DNA of 64,000 nucleotides from an uncultured Pseudomonadota bacterium (GTDB lineage: Bacteria > Pseudomonadota > Alphaproteobacteria > RF32 > CAG-239), in NCBI GenBank assembly GCA_949297185.1, contig CASFRM010000005.1:2368-66367 (forward strand). Reading direction: 5' to 3'. The position numbers and the translations under genes were made by a program. The notes under the pieces were generated by a model. It saw only the letters and a list, made by a program, of their open reading frames with translations, was not told the DNA's origin and did no database searches. This document shows positions 37,498 to 63,979 of the stretch, in pieces. Positions within the stretch are counted from its first letter, which is position 1. Each line of letters begins with the position of its first letter.

Positions 37498-37544
37498 GCC
37501 TTAAATGGGTTTTCTGTATTAGTTCCCCTTTATACGCCGTTTTA
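37498..37544 (+). repeat. Right-arm fragment of the ~122-bp hairpin element
   Basis: GCCTTAAATGGGTTTTCTGTATTAGTTCCCCTTTATACGCCGTTTTA closely matches the 3' arms ending at 57817 and 62162. Confidence 0.8.
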
Positions 37545-56126: not shown

Positions 56127-56576
56127 ATGAAATACTTTTTATGTTTAGCGGCATTTTTAGGTTTTTGCAACTTTGCTTATGCTCAAGACGGCAACCAAAT
56201 GTTACAAACCGAGGTCGAAGAAGAATACTACCAACAAGAAAATCAAAGTCCCGAAAAGTCTAACATATATATTTTCTTCAACAACCAACCCTGTCAAAAT
56301 TGCCCGCAAGCCATTGCCATGATAGAAGAAGCATACAATCAAAACTTTTTGAATCAATACAATCTCTACACCATTGACTATGCCGATGACACCAATTCCG
56401 GATTTGTACAAATGTTTGCATTGAGCAATCCCCTAGAAGTCGTAATGGTACAAATGAACAATGGCGAAATGCAAGGCTACCAAAAGATAGAAGGCATTAC
56501 CGACATGGTACCCGACCCGATGGCTTTCAACGAATATTTTGTTTCGCAGGTTAACGGCTACTTAGGCGGCGAATAA
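56127..56576 (+). CDS. Exported thioredoxin-fold-like protein (CQNC)
   Basis: AAGGAG RBS, signal peptide, and YIFF...CxxC. Confidence 0.7.
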   Translation: MKYFLCLAAFLGFCNFAYAQDGNQMLQTEVEEEYYQQENQSPEKSNIYIFFNNQPCQNCPQAIAMIEEAYNQNFLNQYNLYTIDYADDTNSGFVQMFALSNPLEVVMVQMNNGEMQGYQKIEGITDMVPDPMAFNEYFVSQVNGYLGGE

Positions 56577-56715: not shown

Positions 56716-57375
56716 ATGGAACTAAAAAATTTAACTTTAGATGAAGCAAAACAAGCCTTATGTTCTGCTCTCCCGTTTGGAGATGATTTTATAAAACTTT
56801 GTAACGAAATCGGCATCTCCGATGTCCAATTACAAAAACTGGAGACAATCAATCCGGTGATTACCGAAAAGAGAGCCTTTTCCAGAGGACAAAGCTTTTA
56901 TGCGTGGACCTGCTGGCACAAACGAAAAATATATTTCGTTATCCCCGGAGAAGATGAGGTTTCCATTTCCGGTGAGCAAAACTTTCGGATAAGCCACCTC
57001 AAGTTTGGCGAAAGTGTTCCGGTGGTTATTAAAAAAGATGTTTTGCAGACCCAAACTGCAAATTATCAGCTTATAGCCGACAGGTTTGGCAGCAAAAGAT
57101 TAGTTCCCGAATGGTGGCTTGACGCAGAGAGGGTTAATGCCTACTACTCGTCAAACCCTAAAAAGACTAAACATTGCCTGCAAGAGATCGTAATCGGAGA
57201 TGATAAATTTCTTGCCTGGCGCTTTGCATCGGCAAAACCATGTGCCGTGCATTGGTTTATCATCGAAAACGGAAGCTTTGTTTCCGCCTGTGACAGCCAA
57301 CGGCATCATTTTGCCCTGCCGCAAAAGCAAAAAAATGCTTTTGTCTTAAGCGGCAGCATTTTACGGTTTAAGTAA
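56716..57375 (+). CDS. Hypothetical protein (SF.AWTCW motif family)
   Basis: 219-aa ORF with upstream TTGACA and a downstream terminator. Confidence 0.72.
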   Translation: MELKNLTLDEAKQALCSALPFGDDFIKLCNEIGISDVQLQKLETINPVITEKRAFSRGQSFYAWTCWHKRKIYFVIPGEDEVSISGEQNFRISHLKFGESVPVVIKKDVLQTQTANYQLIADRFGSKRLVPEWWLDAERVNAYYSSNPKKTKHCLQEIVIGDDKFLAWRFASAKPCAVHWFIIENGSFVSACDSQRHHFALPQKQKNAFVLSGSILRFK

Positions 57376-57421: not shown

Positions 57422-57905
57422 TGTCATTCTCGGGCTTGTTTTTCTTCTTTGTCATTCTCGGGCTGTTTTTCTTCCTTCTTTGTCATTCTCGGGCTTGTCC
57501 CGAGAATCTAATAAAACAATATGCCGTAGCTTCTGAGACCCTCGGAATAAATCCGAGGGTGACGGTATAGAACAGACCCTCGGGTCAGAGCCCGAGGGTG
57601 ACGGGGTGTGTGGTGGTCGAGGGTGACATAAAAAGAAGTGTCATTCTCGGGCTTGTCCCGAGAATCTCTTTCCACATCTCAACACAAATTTTTTCAAAAC
57701 GGTGGAGAATGAGTCAAATAATAAGAAAACTTTTTTAAGGCGACGGGAGTGTACTGGCGGTACATGACCTAGCCTTTAAGAAGTTTTCTGTATTAGTTGT
57801 CCATTATACGCCGTTTTACTGTCATTCTCGGGTTCGTGTTTTCCTCTTTGTCATTCTCGGGCTTGTTTTTCTTCTTTGTCATTCTCAGGCTTGTCCCGAG
57901 AATCT
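57422..57905. repeat. Cluster A of TGTC-tagged REP-like palindromes (7 forward, 3 inverted units) with an embedded long hairpin
   Basis: TGTCATTCTC(G/A)GG at 57422, 57450, 57481, 57639, 57820, 57849 and 57877. Full unit is TGTCATTCTCGGGCTTGTCCCGAGAATCT. Inverted ...CGAGGGTGAC units at 57536, 57574 and 57617. Confidence 0.9.
57696..57817. repeat. ~122-bp imperfect palindromic element (RPE/MITE-like), copy 1
   Basis: AAAACGGTG...CGCCGTTTT termini, nested complementary arms, and a central TGTAC-TGGCG-GTACA hairpin. Confidence 0.8.
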
Positions 57906-57936
57906 ACCTCAACAAACAAGAAAATAACTTTTAAAC

Positions 57937-57973
57937 AAAAAAACGGGGAACGCGCTTCACAGCGAATTCCCCG
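57937..57973 (-). terminator. Terminator of the beta-barrel gene
   Basis: Minus strand CGGGGAA...TTCCCCG plus T7. Confidence 0.75.
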
Positions 57974-57995
57974 AAAAAGAGTCTTTTTACGCATT

Positions 57996-59174
57996 TTAGA
58001 AAGAAAATGCATATCCAGCAGTCAGGCTGGCATTTAAGCCGAACCCATTGCTAGACTTACCACTATAATCGGCACGTCCGGTAAAAGACGTTCCAAAATT
58101 ATAATGGCCACCGAAGTTACCAGTTATTTTAATCTGGTGTCTTCCGAAATGGAAGTTTACTCCGATGAATGCACCTCCTTCAACTCCCAAGGTATAGGCT
58201 GCGGCAGCCATCTGGAAGTCTCCAGACTCTGTGCTGCCGCGCTCTATCTTAGAGTATTCACCGAGTCCGGCTTTCGCTCCAAACTCGAACTCCACGATAG
58301 AGCTAGCCCCCCATGGGAGTATTCTATAACCACATTGGCCGTAGATATGGCTTGTGGTTATCTTATCAGACCCAAAGATCTGATAAGCACCCAAGCCATA
58401 TACAGCGCCGCCGAATGCGCCACTCCTGTTAAAATGCAGGAGTTCTGCACCGGCGATCCACCCCTCGTTTCCAAGGAATGAATATCCACTATAGGCTCCT
58501 CCCTGCCAACAATTATCCCCCGAAACTTGTGTTTCGGTGAATATATTGTATGACAAGGAAAGCCCTACAGCCAAACGGTTATTTGCCCACTGGGTTGGGG
58601 TTACGTTCCAACCTTCCGGCATCTCCACCTTGTGGTTGCCGGAATTGTTGAAAGCATACAAGTAACGTCCCCAAACGGACAACGTTACTTGTTTTCCAAC
58701 CATCACGCCTAGGCTGAGCTGTGCTCCAGCCTTAAAACGCCACAAACTATTATAATAGTCGTGGGTTTTTTCATCTTTCCACGCGTGATCATGGAAAGAC
58801 AATTGACCGGCTCCGGCCATTGCGTCCAGTCCGACGTGGACTGTGCTACCGAGGCGAACCCCGATAAGCGCCAGCACGTCGGAAGTCGCGCCATAATGAT
58901 TGGCGTAATCTACACCAACCATCCCACCCCAGCGCCAAGCAAATGCCTGGGTTGGGGTGTATACGCGAGTTGCGGACAGCTCAGCGCCGCCGGAGATATA
59001 TCCCCCAAACGACGCGTGCCCACCGACCGCAACTTCGGTGTGCACTTTTTCAGCTTCGGTAAACCGCAAGTTGCGGTTACCGAAGTGGTGCCCGTAGGCG
59101 GTTGCTATTGGATCTGTAGCAAATGATGCCACAGATACCAATAGCATAAATGCTATATTTAATATTTTTTTCAT
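57996..59174 (-). CDS. Putative outer-membrane beta-barrel protein, possibly two tandem barrel domains
   Basis: Signal peptide, Gly/aromatic alternating strands, internal GLSLSYNI and terminal TAGYAFSF. Confidence 0.72.
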   Translation of the reverse strand: MKKILNIAFMLLVSVASFATDPIATAYGHHFGNRNLRFTEAEKVHTEVAVGGHASFGGYISGGAELSATRVYTPTQAFAWRWGGMVGVDYANHYGATSDVLALIGVRLGSTVHVGLDAMAGAGQLSFHDHAWKDEKTHDYYNSLWRFKAGAQLSLGVMVGKQVTLSVWGRYLYAFNNSGNHKVEMPEGWNVTPTQWANNRLAVGLSLSYNIFTETQVSGDNCWQGGAYSGYSFLGNEGWIAGAELLHFNRSGAFGGAVYGLGAYQIFGSDKITTSHIYGQCGYRILPWGASSIVEFEFGAKAGLGEYSKIERGSTESGDFQMAAAAYTLGVEGGAFIGVNFHFGRHQIKITGNFGGHYNFGTSFTGRADYSGKSSNGFGLNASLTAGYAFSF

Positions 59175-59390
59175 ACCCTAAAGGTTTTTAGGGACCTTAC
59201 TCATTGAGATATTTACCGCAATCAATCGACTGTACCGGGCAGGCCTTTCATCCTAGATGAAAGTCAGAGCCCTAGCAAAGCTCACCCACTATCTGCAAAG
59301 CATCCTCCGATCTTTGCTCCCACCACAGTCAATCTCTTGCGATATCTCAATTTTCAGGCATCCCCTAAAACCTTTTCAGGCTCTCGGGGA
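59175..59390 (-). ncRNA. Candidate structured cis-regulatory RNA
   Basis: Multiple nested inverted repeats forming a three-way junction, plus competing pairings next to the start codon. Confidence 0.45.
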
Positions 59391-59395
59391 TTAAA

Positions 59396-61334
59396 TTAAA
59401 CAAAATACCATGTGAACCCGCCGTAGCTGATGGTCCACACGCTATTAGCTTGGCTACCGGTTGCCTTCAACGGTTCCGCAAAAGAAACACCATTTAAAGC
59501 TGCTTCAGCATCGCCAAGTATGTTCATCAACACCCCACCAAAAGAGTGGTAGCTGATAACATAACCGGTTGATGCTTTGTTTGCCGTTATGTATGAAAGC
59601 ACTCCTATTTCATAAGAGCCACCGTTCCATACCCACGCCGGAGCCTTGCCCGCTTCCATTAACGCCATAGCGTTGGAAGCAGAGATCTCGGTTGCAGTCC
59701 AAGATGTCGAATTTACCGGACGAGAATAAACGGTATATGTTCCGTTATTATTCGTCAGCACATGCAAGTCAGTACTTGTCAAAGTTCTGCCTTGATATGC
59801 ATCGGTAATCCATACACCGAGGACTTCACCGTTAAGATCTTCCGCTTCGATTATGTTTATAGAAATAATAGCTTCCGAATAATCAGAAGAATTATTTTTA
59901 TCTTCGAAGCGGACTGTGGCCGTCGTCACACTTGTGATAGTGATTGTTTTTGCAACCACCTCACAAGCCGGAGCATTTGCACGGTAGTCCTTGCCGTTGT
60001 GCATAATCGCACTACCCTGACGGTTAGCTAAACTTATGCTAACGTTTTTCCCTTCAACAATGGCACTGCCATTGTTGAAGTTGTATGACTGACCGAGCAT
60101 ATTGGAAATGTTGTTGACAACGAATGTTGGCACAACATAGCTGAAATTATTAACTACACTGTAGTTAACATTTGCAGTTTCTGTTGTGTTGTCATTATAG
60201 TTGTCAACGAAAGTTGCCAAATTATCGCAGGTAACTGCGATATTAGCTCCAGAAACCTCAGCATTGCGACGATAAGCTACATGATTGTAGCTTTCATCGG
60301 TGCTGACAAGACGACGGTTTTCTTCCACCGTAACGATAACGGTTGTCTCTGCATAGTCGTTGGCGTCGTTGTCATAAAATTTGACAACTGCCTCAGATGC
60401 AGAAACAAAGGTAATGGTTCTGGCTTCAACTTTGCAAGGAACGATTTCGCTTGCGTAGTCTTTTTCACCATGCATTACCTTATCGTCAACAGCTGCAGAT
60501 TTCCAAACAGCAGAAACTGTTTGATCGGCAACCGTAACAACACCGTTTTCAAACGAGAAAGTCTTACCCACAACAGTATTAACATCCTCCACTTCTATTA
60601 CCGGAGCAGTAAAAGTAAATTCGTTAGATACGGTGTAAGCAACTTCCTCTACATTCTTTCTGCTACCATCGCTGTAGATATCAGCGAAGTTTGCAACATT
60701 GTCACAAACCACGGTAATGATATCATCATTAACGGAAGCAGCACGGCGGAATGCCTTGTGAGCGTAGTCCCACTCGGTTCTATCCAAAACCGGCGGAACA
60801 TAGCCTTCCTCAACCACGAATACTTGAGTAGCCGAAGCTAGCTCAATTCCATCGAAATCGAGGATATACTCTGTCTCCGACAATTCATAGTACGGAGACT
60901 CAACAGAGTCTATCGCACTATGACTGCCAGAAACAGTCATCATGTCCGCCTCAAGGCAGTTGAGGTGTCTTACCGTTGTAGACATAGTCCACAACGATAT
61001 TTGCCTTAACTACGTTTTTAATACCGTAGTTATAGGCAAAAGCCACTACCTCCTCTGCCTTTTTGCTCAACTCCTCGGCAGGGGCAACAGGCTGATTTCC
61101 ACCAACTTTGATGGTGTCTTCAACCGTGAGACGGAATTTCCATTCCATCTCTTCTTCAGTTTCATCGTCAAAGACGATGAATACTGAATTATCTCCCACT
61201 GGGATGTACCCAAGTGGGATCTTTTTGTTCTCCACTTGGGGTATGTCTTCCCCAAGTAAGAGACTTTCACTGCAGCTGGTAAAAGCTGCAGCAAAAGTTA
61301 ACATCATAGCTATGGTTTTTAAAATTTTTGCCAT
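59396..61334 (-). pseudogene. Lipoprotein with two ~157-aa tandem repeats, split by a +1 frame change (60951-61334 and 59396-60994)
   Basis: FTSC lipobox in the upstream ORF. The frames join at CCT-TGA-G near 60953. The downstream ORF lacks its own signal peptide. Confidence 0.65.
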
Positions 61335-61801
61335 AACTTTAATATCTTTTCCCTTTACTCATAAAAACAATTCTTGTTACTCAATTACTTTTCCGGCAGG
61401 CAAGATATCATCAGATATCCAGACGGGATAGTAGCTACTCCTATCCGCTCCACTTACTGTATCGCATCTTTTCATGACCGATACTCCTTACTCAGTAATT
61501 TTTGGCAAAAATCATTTTTTCTGAAGGGCGGGCGTACAGCATCATTATTCATGATGGTCACCCCTTATTTTGTTTAATTTTTTTTAGTTTTATTCACGCT
61601 AGAATAAATCCGGCAGAAGAGTATCTCCTTACGGCTGGCGTGGCATTCGTATAATTTCCCTGAAAACATTATTAAGATATGAAAATCAAAACATATAGAG
61701 GCAATTTAAAACGAAAACGTTATTTCGTTACACAAAAAACCCTTTTTTTAATCATCAATAATTTAAATAATGGCTTCCAACGATAATACTTTTGCAATTC
61801 T

Positions 61802-61830
61802 AATATAGCACAATATCTTTATTTTAGCAA
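61802..61830 (-). promoter_or_regulatory. Sigma70-like promoter for the lipoprotein cassette
   Basis: Minus strand TTGCTA-N17-TATATT with extended TG. Confidence 0.5.
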
Positions 61831-61956
61831 GCAAAATCACAAAAAAAATCGTCAGCTAACCAACTGATTTGTATATATTTTTTAAATATTTTTTAACCAA
61901 TTCATTTTGCGTGACAAAAATTTGTCAATTTTCGTCCCTCACATCAACGCCGCTTA

Positions 61957-62194
61957 TGTCATTCTCGGGCTTATTTCTCTTCTTTGTCATTCTCGGGCTT
62001 GTCCCGAGAATCTCTTACCATATCTCAATACAAATTTTTTCAAAACGGTGGAGAATGAGGCAAATAATAAGAAAGCTTTTTTAAGGCGACGGGAGTGTAC
62101 TGGTGGTACATGACCCAGCCTTAAAGAGGTTTCTGTATTAGTTGCCCATTATACGCCGTTTTACTGTCATTCTCGGAATAAATCCGAGGTTGAC
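61957..62194. repeat. Cluster B of TGTC-tagged REP-like palindromes with an embedded long hairpin
   Basis: TGTCATTCTCGG units at 61957, 61985 and 62165. 61985-62176 is a direct repeat of 57639-57831. Confidence 0.9.
62042..62162. repeat. ~121-bp imperfect palindromic element, copy 2
   Basis: Near-identical to 57696-57817. Confidence 0.8.
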
Positions 62195-62257
62195 TACAAA
62201 AAAAGCACCTGCCCATCACGACAAGTGCTTCCTTTTCTTTAACCTAAATTTTTTATT

Positions 62258-62866
62258 CTAGAAAGTAAACCTGATACCGCCATACCATTCGTGAGCATTG
62301 ACCTCTGCCCCTTCAATCTTACCCAAAGTATGGTATCTGTAACCGGCATCAATATTCAAACAACGATTAATTCTCAAGGTCAACCCTGCACCGATTTGCC
62401 AAGAGAACTTACTCTCTTCCCATTTTTCGTCGCTGGTTGCAGCTGCCACATTATCATTAACCATCTCAAGTTCAGTATAACCGATACCACCGCCAAAATA
62501 CGGGCTAATCCAATAATTTGGCATCAAATCAACATACATATTCAACATATATGATTTTGATGAAACAGTCATAGATGAAGTATGCACACCGGAACTAACA
62601 ATGTCTTCTTCGGCATCGTCTCTGGAAATATACTCCAATTCTGCTCTAAAATATTTGTACTTATAACCGATAGCTCCCGAGTACATGCCCACACTATCCA
62701 AATCACTTATTTTTGCCGCAGTAATCGAATCGTCTTTTGTATTAAGATTATTCCAGGTCATACCGCCTCTGGCCGTCAAATAAAACCCGTCTCTGGCTTC
62801 TGCCACATTGCTCAAACCAAGCACCAAAGCTACTGCCGAGCAAGCTGTTACTATAGTTTTTTTCAT
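62258..62866 (-). CDS. Eight-stranded outer membrane beta-barrel protein (opacity/OmpA-like family)
   Basis: Signal peptide, AIGY..RAELEY, PYFGGGIG, WQIGAG, DAGYRY and terminal GIRFTF. Confidence 0.85.
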   Translation of the reverse strand: MKKTIVTACSAVALVLGLSNVAEARDGFYLTARGGMTWNNLNTKDDSITAAKISDLDSVGMYSGAIGYKYKYFRAELEYISRDDAEEDIVSSGVHTSSMTVSSKSYMLNMYVDLMPNYWISPYFGGGIGYTELEMVNDNVAAATSDEKWEESKFSWQIGAGLTLRINRCLNIDAGYRYHTLGKIEGAEVNAHEWYGGIRFTF

Positions 62867-63039: not shown

Positions 63040-63384
63040 ATGAAAACAAAAAAATTTTTATCAGCATGCTTTCTTGCCATAGCTTGCAGTATCATTATCG
63101 GGTGTTACGCAATAATAACAAATTTTGTTAACAAGCAGTTGACTCAAATCAAAACCATTACAATTGTTTCGGTACGTGCTGATACCGAAATAAAGTATTT
63201 TGAAAACACCCGCGGAATCATTGATCCCGACACTATAGTTAACTTCTACGAGGTTATCTACGTAGACGAAAATGGGCACAAGTCCGACTGGACAAAATGC
63301 CCCAAACCGCCCAAACCTCAAATAGGCAAAACAAAGGCCTATTTTTATAATGACGAGATCGTCTGGCAAACTTCACTGGAGTGA
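63040..63384 (+). CDS. Small membrane-anchored protein, paralogue of 63671-63979
   Basis: MKTKK, a TM segment, then Y.V.Y.D..G. Confidence 0.7.
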   Translation: MKTKKFLSACFLAIACSIIIGCYAIITNFVNKQLTQIKTITIVSVRADTEIKYFENTRGIIDPDTIVNFYEVIYVDENGHKSDWTKCPKPPKPQIGKTKAYFYNDEIVWQTSLE

Positions 63385-63420
63385 AAAAAAAGCGCCCGTT
63401 TATAAAAACGGACGCTTTTT
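63384..63420 (+). terminator. Intrinsic terminator
   Basis: AAAAAGCGCCCGTTT...AAACGGACGCTTTTT. Confidence 0.75.
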
Positions 63421-63609
63421 CTTTTTGCTAAAGAGCTATATTAGCATGCTTTTTTTAAGCAGCAATCAGCACCGCTGACAACCATTTCACTGTTGAATTT
63501 AAAGCAATAAAAGCACCAATCTGTATTGGTTAATAGCCATTAAAACCAACCTTTAGTAAGTATTTTTGCGCAAAATCAATAAATTTTACCAAAAACTTAC
63601 AAAAAGAAT

Positions 63610-63638
63610 TTGACAAAATAAACAAAATATTTTACCTT
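63610..63638 (+). promoter_or_regulatory. Sigma70-like promoter
   Basis: TTGACA-N17-TACCTT. Confidence 0.55.
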
Positions 63639-63670
63639 CAATACAAATACCAACTTTTAATTTTATAATT

Positions 63671-63979
63671 ATGAAAACAAAAAAGATCTTATTAAACATT
63701 ATGTGGGGAGTCCTGTTCGTCATTCCTGTTTCTGCTGCCATCTTAAACGATGCCCGCATAAATAAGATGAAACAGGAAGTGGAAATCACCCAAATAACTC
63801 CCGCGACAGCAAACAGAAACGGGAAAGTTATAACCTCATACTCCGTAGTCTACAAAGACAGCCTCGGAGTACTATCCAACCAAATTCCTGTCAAATTGGG
63901 TATTGAACCCAAAACTGGCACCGCAAAGATAATCGTAAAAGATAATAGGATTATCTTGTTGGAACCAGTCGAAGAATAA
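63671..63979 (+). CDS. Small membrane-anchored protein, paralogue of 63040-63384
   Basis: MKTKK, a TM segment, then YSVVYKDSLG. Followed by the same terminator arm. Confidence 0.7.
   Translation: MKTKKILLNIMWGVLFVIPVSAAILNDARINKMKQEVEITQITPATANRNGKVITSYSVVYKDSLGVLSNQIPVKLGIEPKTGTAKIIVKDNRIILLEPVEE

Follow-up and report, generated by a model that had tools for sequence, protein, structure and literature searches.

Repeat arrays of Neisseria type beside a lipoprotein and double-barrel operon with signs of allele exchange in an uncultured alphaproteobacterium

Two nearly identical direct repeats stand on either side of a pair of surface-protein genes in the genome of an uncultured alphaproteobacterium (assembly GCA_949297185.1, lineage CAG-239), which raises the question of whether they mark the ends of a mobile cassette or gathered around genes that were there before them. 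The stretch concerned, hereafter the window, comprises 64,000 nucleotides of contig CASFRM010000005.1 (positions 2,368 to 66,367). Its source genome (G000; 1.51 Mb, 44 contigs, 94% complete) was considered against a comparison set of 56 genomes of its genus, a small-genome genus of the Alphaproteobacteria. We give a probability of roughly 70% to the reading that the repeats belong to an array system of the NIME/NTS-Ssn type, known from Neisseria, placed at surface genes that diversify by allele exchange.

The operon and the repeats around it

Positions 57639-57831 and 61985-62176, both on the plus strand, agree at 182 of 193 aligned positions, with 10 mismatches and 1 gap (blastn E 3e-81). A reading made from the sequence only had counted about 11 differences between them and had described each copy as a repetitive extragenic palindromic (REP) element, a linker, a hairpin of about 122 bp and the start of a further REP; count and make-up both hold, with a linker of about 28 bp. 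The match is real, but the 193-bp repeat is not a bounded unit, because both copies are parts of larger REP arrays. The left array (57422-57905) consists of CGTC-type hairpins resembling NTS and the Ssn-related motif (SRM), with full copies on both strands, truncated heads and the 122-bp hairpin as one spacer; the right SRM array (61957-62195) also has this hairpin as a spacer. The hairpin, a dispersed element, lies on the plus strand at 57696-57817 (z-score of folding -8.3; 133.8 bits with model R1) and at 62042-62162 (z -8.0; 131.4 bits).

Between the arrays is an operon on the minus strand with a lipoprotein gene (59396-61334) and a gene for a 392-aa outer-membrane protein (OMP; 57996-59174). 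The left flank is marked by trx (56127-56576, plus strand), which encodes a thioredoxin-like exported protein and is present in 56/56 genus genomes. The right flank is omp202 (62258-62866, minus strand), a vertically inherited gene for a 202-aa, eight-stranded OMP (PF13505, E 3e-17) present in 54/56. The sequence-only reading had listed promoter, leader, lipoprotein, spacer, barrel and terminator between the repeats, a further OMP gene just outside, and no transposase or integrase. All of the listed parts are present, with the amendments that the lipoprotein gene is split in the window, the barrel is double and the terminator was recognised by eye only; the adjoining OMP_b-brl gene is omp202, and no transposase or integrase occurs among the open reading frames (ORFs) of window positions 50-64 kb.

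The barrel family is found in 16 of the 56 genomes; 12 of these lack the REP, and one more has a single copy of it on another contig. The operon lies between trx and omp202, or beside one of them at contig breaks, in G065, G068, G015, G057, G056, G002, G003, G004, G060 and G018 (where the locus holds 6 kb extra). The hairpin stands on both sides in G000, on the right only in G065 and on neither side in G068, and the composite 193-bp repeat is lacking at the operon in every other genome examined. At the site of the left direct-repeat copy the hairpin is missing in both G065 and G068; the right array of G065 has the same REP and hairpin unit as the window, G068 has REP-only arrays on both sides and G015 has none. 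These sequence comparisons indicate that the operon predates both repeat families at the site and that the two hairpin copies reached its flanks separately. The two window hairpins differ from each other at 8 sites, and each differs at 4-7 sites from four of the five G068 copies elsewhere; because their mutual distance is not below that to unlinked copies, they do not appear to be a duplication made at integration. The independent insertion of two copies, offered earlier as an alternative, is thus favoured over a repeat-bracketed cassette gained or lost as a unit.

Empty sites retaining a single repeat would be expected of such a cassette. Three empty trx-omp202 sites were found (G042, G049 and G069; 55-209 bp) and neither repeat is present in any of them; the operon of these genomes lies beyond omp202 or on a separate contig. 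The search for different cargo succeeded in part, since G008, G051 and G052 have at the site a distant lipoprotein-barrel pair in inverted orientation, though without the repeats. From the empty and relocated sites it follows that the operon moved on the time scale of the genus, and nothing ties the move to the 193-bp unit. Junctions of excision or circle formation were sought in metagenome contigs, which drop rare forms, from four of ten listed runs. No excision joint from 57638 to about 62177 and no circle joint was found in these contigs, where rare forms could be missed. A joint from 57564 to 62174, a skip of 4609 bp taken as a candidate excision, is actually another REP array (G000:C6). 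The joint 62162-57423 has single-copy depth in runs X1 and X2, differs from the expected recombination product and is not found in the assembly; it is most likely an unassembled copy. A weak joint in run X5 (a single contig of depth 5, with 29 letters on its shorter side) skips the whole left array.

Replacement of segments within the operon

When the 1392 ORFs of G000 were compared with 719 ORFs from 793,502 bases of G065, roughly half of that genome, 630 reciprocal best pairs emerged, with a median identity of 95.3%; among these pairs the barrel is ninth lowest (52.3%) and the lipoprotein 23rd (69%). The flanks are conserved in the sister species (trx 99-100% in G065 and G068, omp202 89-93%), as are the sequences that enclose the swapped barrel, namely the spacer (95%) and the terminator-side DNA (100%). 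A 14-taxon tree of omp202 and trx places G000, G065 and G068 together (100/100), whereas in the barrel tree G000 joins G018, G004 and G069 (100/100; approximately unbiased test, p 2.9e-47). The window therefore carries a barrel allele acquired from another lineage, of which the N-terminus looks resident and the remainder donor-like, so that one crossover lies early in the gene and the other near the stop codon. The lipoprotein is a patchwork, with 45-98% identity per 100 bases. In run X2 no base of the flanks differs from the window (0 of 1451 and 0 of 1269), but two pieces of the lipoprotein show 94 and 78 differences, and the second piece has no window-type letters at the listed sites. The tree conflict of the barrel and the lipoprotein differences in X2 agree with the exchange of surface-gene alleles suggested before, and the operon genes appear to diversify by replacing segments with DNA from relatives.

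In the array-free trio G015, G057 and G060 the barrels are 81-84% alike and trx 85-92%. In three array-bearing groups, with arrays of one subfamily or another, the barrel identities are 52-53%, 31% and 65-67%, and trx is 92-100% identical. A link between replacement and array presence is suggestive only, as one group is compared with three and these are few and non-independent. Elsewhere in the genome, the orthologs of G000:C3:33406-39557 (L148) form another replaced block of neighbouring genes, only 60-64% identical to G065.

The arrays, their putative nuclease and the hairpin family

With one mismatch allowed, the REP pattern has 58 copies in 18 clusters in G000. These REPs give 28 matches to the published degenerate SRM, compared with 0-4 in 20 shuffles, and the window REPs at 57603 (minus strand) and 57639 (plus strand) fit it. 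The exact REP is present in 14/56 genus genomes and is abundant in G000 (45 copies), G065 (43) and G068 (68). Its stem starts with ATTCTC or ACCCTC/ATCCTC, so that it is related to the dRS3 consensus, ATTCCC-N8-GGGAAT, without conforming to it. We take the REP to be an SRM repeat of NTS/dRS3-like kind, expanded in the lineage of G000, G065 and G068. The kind is known in Alphaproteobacteria, SRM repeats having been described from Wolbachia and Rhizorhabdus (Chenal et al. 2025, PMC11893778). In G004, G018, G069, G003, G008 and G013 the operon is flanked by further SRM-like subfamilies; at the operon, G004, G002 and G003 are without the REP subfamily of the window and have other SRM-like hairpins (in G002 by eye only), and G015, G057, G060 and G056 have no tagged hairpins there. 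The G069 operon (L229) has arrays of another SRM-like subfamily on both sides. A REPIN/RAYT system was considered and rejected, as no RAYT gene was found in G000: the RAYT-type Y1 HUH transposase (PF01797) has no match in G000 (94% complete), G068 or G004, and the matches in G015 and G065 are counted irrespective of REP flanks, which were not looked at. Viral contigs gave only two single REP matches, of which the one inspected is GC-rich and unrelated, and no hairpin.

The largest REP cluster of the genome, with 12 REPs around it, encloses a 95-aa GIY-YIG gene (G000:C6:50891-51178; PF01541, E 4e-16). Its product has putative catalytic residues Y7, Y18 and E65, matched by spacing, with no alignment, to Y6, Y17 and E64 of SsnA (PMC11893778); an NCBIfam search gave sub-threshold matches only. 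With an SRM-fitting REP and an ssnA-like gene in the largest array, the likeness to Neisseria NIMEs that had been drawn from the sequence is well founded. The whole SRM-ssnA-SRM unit spans G000:C6:50572-51620 (L187), between what we take from their motifs to be phosphoglycerate-mutase-like and patatin-like genes. The same gene with flanking arrays is present in G065; at this site G068 (G068:C15, L248) has kept the array and the gene is gone, and both are lacking in G042, G049 and G057, the last of which shows nothing but a gap of about 30 bp. The repeat-bracketed unit with an empty site is therefore the SRM-ssnA-SRM unit and not the surface operon. Genes similar to ssn occur in 19/56 genus genomes, with varied neighbours and often with other hairpin types, and one adjoins the operon on the omp202 side in G003 and G008. 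A second ssn-like gene of G000 (C14:7937-8215, L207) has a different hairpin pair and lies between apparent restriction-modification genes. The competence genes comEC and dprA were found in 5/5 genomes checked.

Arrays are also associated with flagellin genes. Seven of the 14 Flagellin_C matches, one of them below the Pfam cut-off, have an array right after the stop, compared with 20 of 1320 ORFs (Fisher p 1.4e-8, conservative table), and two more are followed by the hairpin. In the part of G065 covered, the match is seen at 2/4 flagellin ends and another has a decayed copy. Many arrays begin directly at a stop codon. The proposed association of repeats with variable surface genes is strong at this locus and at flagellin ends; the genome-wide test for more divergent array neighbours is weak (p 0.042).

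The hairpin belongs to a family with a history of its own. Its 38 distinct copies align with sharp ends, with 93.4% of the alignment cells paired and two-sided changes at 29 of 40 pairs, a value equalled by 0/500 shuffles and by no slid control; the element folds with a z-score of about -8 as DNA or RNA, and better on one strand. A covariance model detects it in 53/56 genus genomes and in 15/151 genomes drawn from the class (a tally that includes G000 and one genome flagged unpublished, which enters into no other statement here). As 11 of 12 copies examined in the clade of G000, G065 and G068 touch a REP, the hairpin appears to serve there as an array spacer, and the direct-repeat look of the locus arises because one hairpin copy sits in the array on each side. 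In length (about 125 bp), imperfect pairing and dispersal as a long hairpin it resembles ERIC and RPE-1-like elements, a relation that is a lead only. Within a 10-kb test region of Escherichia coli the best match of the model was full-length and shared the central motif, yet was weak (15.6 bits, E 0.024); the site is presumably an ERIC, although not annotated as such. The whole E. coli chromosome gave no match to the model, a search of plasmids gave none, and the RPE1 and RPE3 hidden Markov models had no match over their cut-off. Partial or internally deleted hairpins occur at window positions 37498-37543 and at G000:C39:5601-5700, and their end forms the TAA stop of flagellin-like genes. Three tandem divergent members follow an smpB-like gene (G000:C13:47458-47832; model R1, E 4e-15 to 8e-4).

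Like the NTS/dRS3-SsnA system of Neisseria (PMC11893778), the system described here has a GTC-tagged SRM hairpin with a C after the palindrome, clustered arrays, a single-domain 95-aa GIY-YIG gene with repeats on both sides, clusters near surface genes and competence genes. It differs in having about 58 copies in 18 clusters and not hundreds, another stem sequence, an uncultured alphaproteobacterial host and a nuclease that is predicted, and in that G068 keeps an array without the gene. As in the NIME arrays at tbpAB, lbpAB and porA (PMC1797815), REP-spacer-REP mosaics vary between close genomes and flank a lipoprotein and barrel operon that diverges far more than its neighbours. Unlike in NIMEs, a family of structured 122-bp hairpins supplies one spacer, the barrel protein has an 8+8 double barrel and is not a TonB-dependent receptor, and the mapped breakpoints fall within the operon; in Neisseria, 13 of 19 tbpB fragments ended in or near an array (PMC1797815). 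That paper states that NIME arrays were unseen outside Neisseria (Bentley et al. 2007). With the CGTC REP superfamily (Di Nocera et al. 2013, PMC3733652; dRS3, RPE-4, RPE-6) the REP shares the TGTC/CGTC tag, a stem of 8-9 bp with leading AT, a 5-nt loop, head-to-head heterodimers and an alphaproteobacterial host. A literature search, outside which most subscription papers lay, found no paper on the arrays of this lineage; the supplements of PMC11893778, which list SRM counts and homologs of ssnA, could already cover relatives of the genus.

The proposed history begins with an old lipoprotein and double-barrel operon between trx and omp202 in one branch of the genus. An SRM repeat tied to an ssnA-like gene would then have expanded in the G000/G065/G068 lineage, building dynamic arrays to the left and right of the operon and after many flagellin genes, and the older, separate hairpin family would have been captured as an array spacer, like the RS spacers of Neisseria NIMEs. 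DNA would enter by natural transformation, gene segments would be replaced by homologous recombination anchored in the leader, the spacer and conserved coding stretches, and selection on the exposed proteins would keep the variants. The arrays are candidate Ssn substrates, at which single-stranded DNA would be cut. According to PMC11893778, SsnA cuts single-stranded DNA only, next to NTS, and lowers integration and transformation in Neisseria; by analogy, cutting of this type would leave incoming fragments shorter and might shift crossovers into the operon. Any effect of the arrays on exchange is inferred. Several observations weigh against our reading. The breakpoints fall inside the operon and not in arrays, which therefore show no sign of being the crossover sites; G068 has 68 REP copies and no ssnA match; flagellin paralogs are non-independent and could have their arrays in common through gene conversion; and runs X1 and X2 belong to a single study, X1 is possibly the source sample, and strains may be mixed in metagenome contigs. 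Genome-wide, the excess divergence of array neighbours is also weak: for 16 of 32 a partner existed, with a median of 94.3%, and 4 of these 16, the barrel itself among them, are under 80% identity, compared with 8% (p 0.042).

The arrays may, together with the SsnA-like nuclease, set a recombination window, with single-stranded DNA cut at the arrays, crossovers inside the operon and flanks spared, unrelated SRM subfamilies with ssnA having colonised its borders several times; we consider this stronger version unlikely. If true, the Neisseria arrangement would have arisen a second time independently, sister lineages free of arrays would serve as natural controls, and the SRM-ssnA-SRM unit would behave as a mobile unit. 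About equally doubtful is that the arrays are selfish passengers. SRM-ssnA units and the hairpin would insert where genes end and at terminators and would travel along with recombination at surface genes, immune or phage selection alone explaining the swaps: the anatomy would be the same, the arrays having no role. Passengers would fit the different neighbours of ssnA-like genes across 19/56 genomes, as of a mobile unit, the arrays that start right at a stop codon, the 12 of 16 measurable array neighbours that are 89-99% conserved and the breakpoints inside the operon. They would fit less well with the clock-like barrels of the array-free trio beside the replaced alleles of three array groups (few and non-independent), and with the recurrence of different SRM-like subfamilies and ssnA at this operon.

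Far less probable is that the whole 4.1-kb cassette is added, removed or swapped by recombination or integration at the 193-bp direct repeats. Being direct and 94% identical, they would allow RecA to delete the segment, and the locus is indeed empty in some relatives and filled by another pair in others. The model is nevertheless unsupported, and largely refuted at the genus level, because the operon occurs without the repeats, the copies arrived separately, being no closer to each other than to unlinked copies, the empty sites are repeat-free, and no junction was seen in the four runs nor any recombinase nearby; the claim of a new cassette system does not hold. The least probable account is that the repeats act as RNA downstream of omp202 and orf219 (an ORF left of the array), tuning mRNA stability or termination, their place around the operon being incidental. 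The conserved hairpin structure and its better folding on one strand would suit it, as would the position of CGTC REPs, mostly downstream of genes (PMC3733652). However, the arrays lie outside the promoter and terminator of the operon and beyond the terminators of the flanking genes, covariation cannot separate RNA from single-stranded DNA, and it is on the latter alone that SsnA acts (PMC11893778). Whether NIME/NTS arrays promote, restrict or merely accompany surface-gene variation is at issue: one paper proposes promotion, and a later one shows that SsnA lowers transformation at the arrays. The genus adds another case, remote from Neisseria: its lineages differ in whether this operon has arrays, several of its SRM subfamilies are accompanied by ssn genes of their own, and one site has kept the array while the gene is gone. 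It also supplies new nuclease-repeat pairs for assays, as well as a lipoprotein and double-barrel pair that is strongly diversified and uncharacterised.

Products, RNA structures and surroundings of the operon

The lipoprotein is a predicted all-beta, multi-domain surface protein of about 160-aa repeats, and its intact orthologs have 650-1485 aa, varying in steps of about 160 aa. In the window the gene is split by a 5-nt deletion near 60967, scored relative to G065 and G015. It is probably intact in the population, the break being an assembly error or a minor variant, because contigs of X1 and X2 have 5 extra nt at the frameshift (4155 over 4150; 1208 over 1203); phase variation was rejected, there being no simple repeat at that point. 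The predicted structure of the G004 ortholog has a confidence (pLDDT) of 85.7, fold searches returned weak Ig-like matches only (best Z 6.5; atlas matches below 0.9), and a Bacteroidota origin, also considered, is not shown by the searches. Second or relocated lipoprotein copies (967 and 1485 aa) lie off the main locus in L014 (G004:C2), L240 (G056:C1) and L229 (G069:C8).

The 392-aa OMP is modelled with 16 long strands (pLDDT 73.9) as two tandem eight-stranded beta-barrels: residues 41-212 and 218-392 each match eight-stranded barrels of OmpA, NspA and OprF (Z 16-18, prediction only). It would thus resemble the 8-8 multibarrel OMPs described in PMC8346858, with two concatenated barrels in one chain, and differs from them in belonging to no Pfam or NCBIfam family, searches of both giving no match. 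Relatives number 59 among 1.84 billion representatives, the named carriers being uncultured Alphaproteobacteria or proteobacteria. The barrel region has a GC content of 49-52%, against about 39% genome-wide.

A promoter-like site (61830-61802), conserved across 15 leaders, opens a long leader (61335-61830, minus strand; z -3.4) with a clade-specific structured extension. The intergenic spacer (59175-59395, minus strand; z -8.5) folds as a long stem around a multi-hairpin junction and is 95-96% identical in G065 and G068; the long spacers of 14 genomes have z-scores of -3.4 to -9.3 in 14/14. The spacer and the leader extension (61378-61510) both show a long stem around three hairpins, with short loop motifs in common. 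The spacer had no Rfam match at E<=1, and window positions 56-64 kb nothing at gathering level. The consensus fold of 12 spacer cores contained no pairs, and a spacer-only profile missed the leader copy. Spacer and leader extension are a possible undescribed RNA element, the homology of the two being unproven. The terminator-like hairpin (57933-57979, minus strand) was missed by a terminator scan; it is of the resident type shared with G065 and G068, with 82/82 bases identical in G068. The omp202 terminator motif gave no match in metagenomes of the Joint Genome Institute (JGI). Past the operon terminator of G065, the contig is broken by what we assume from its hairpin ends to be an IS200/IS605-like insertion (L062:8222-8343 and L061:1-121).

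Between trx and the left array lies orf219 (window 56716-57375), an ORF of 219 aa and unrecognised family, 99.5% identical in G068 and 73% in G065 and not found here in the other relatives examined. Another fast-changing spot lies upstream of omp202 (window 63040-63979), where a pair of small paralogs that look exported share 35% and 76% identity with G065.

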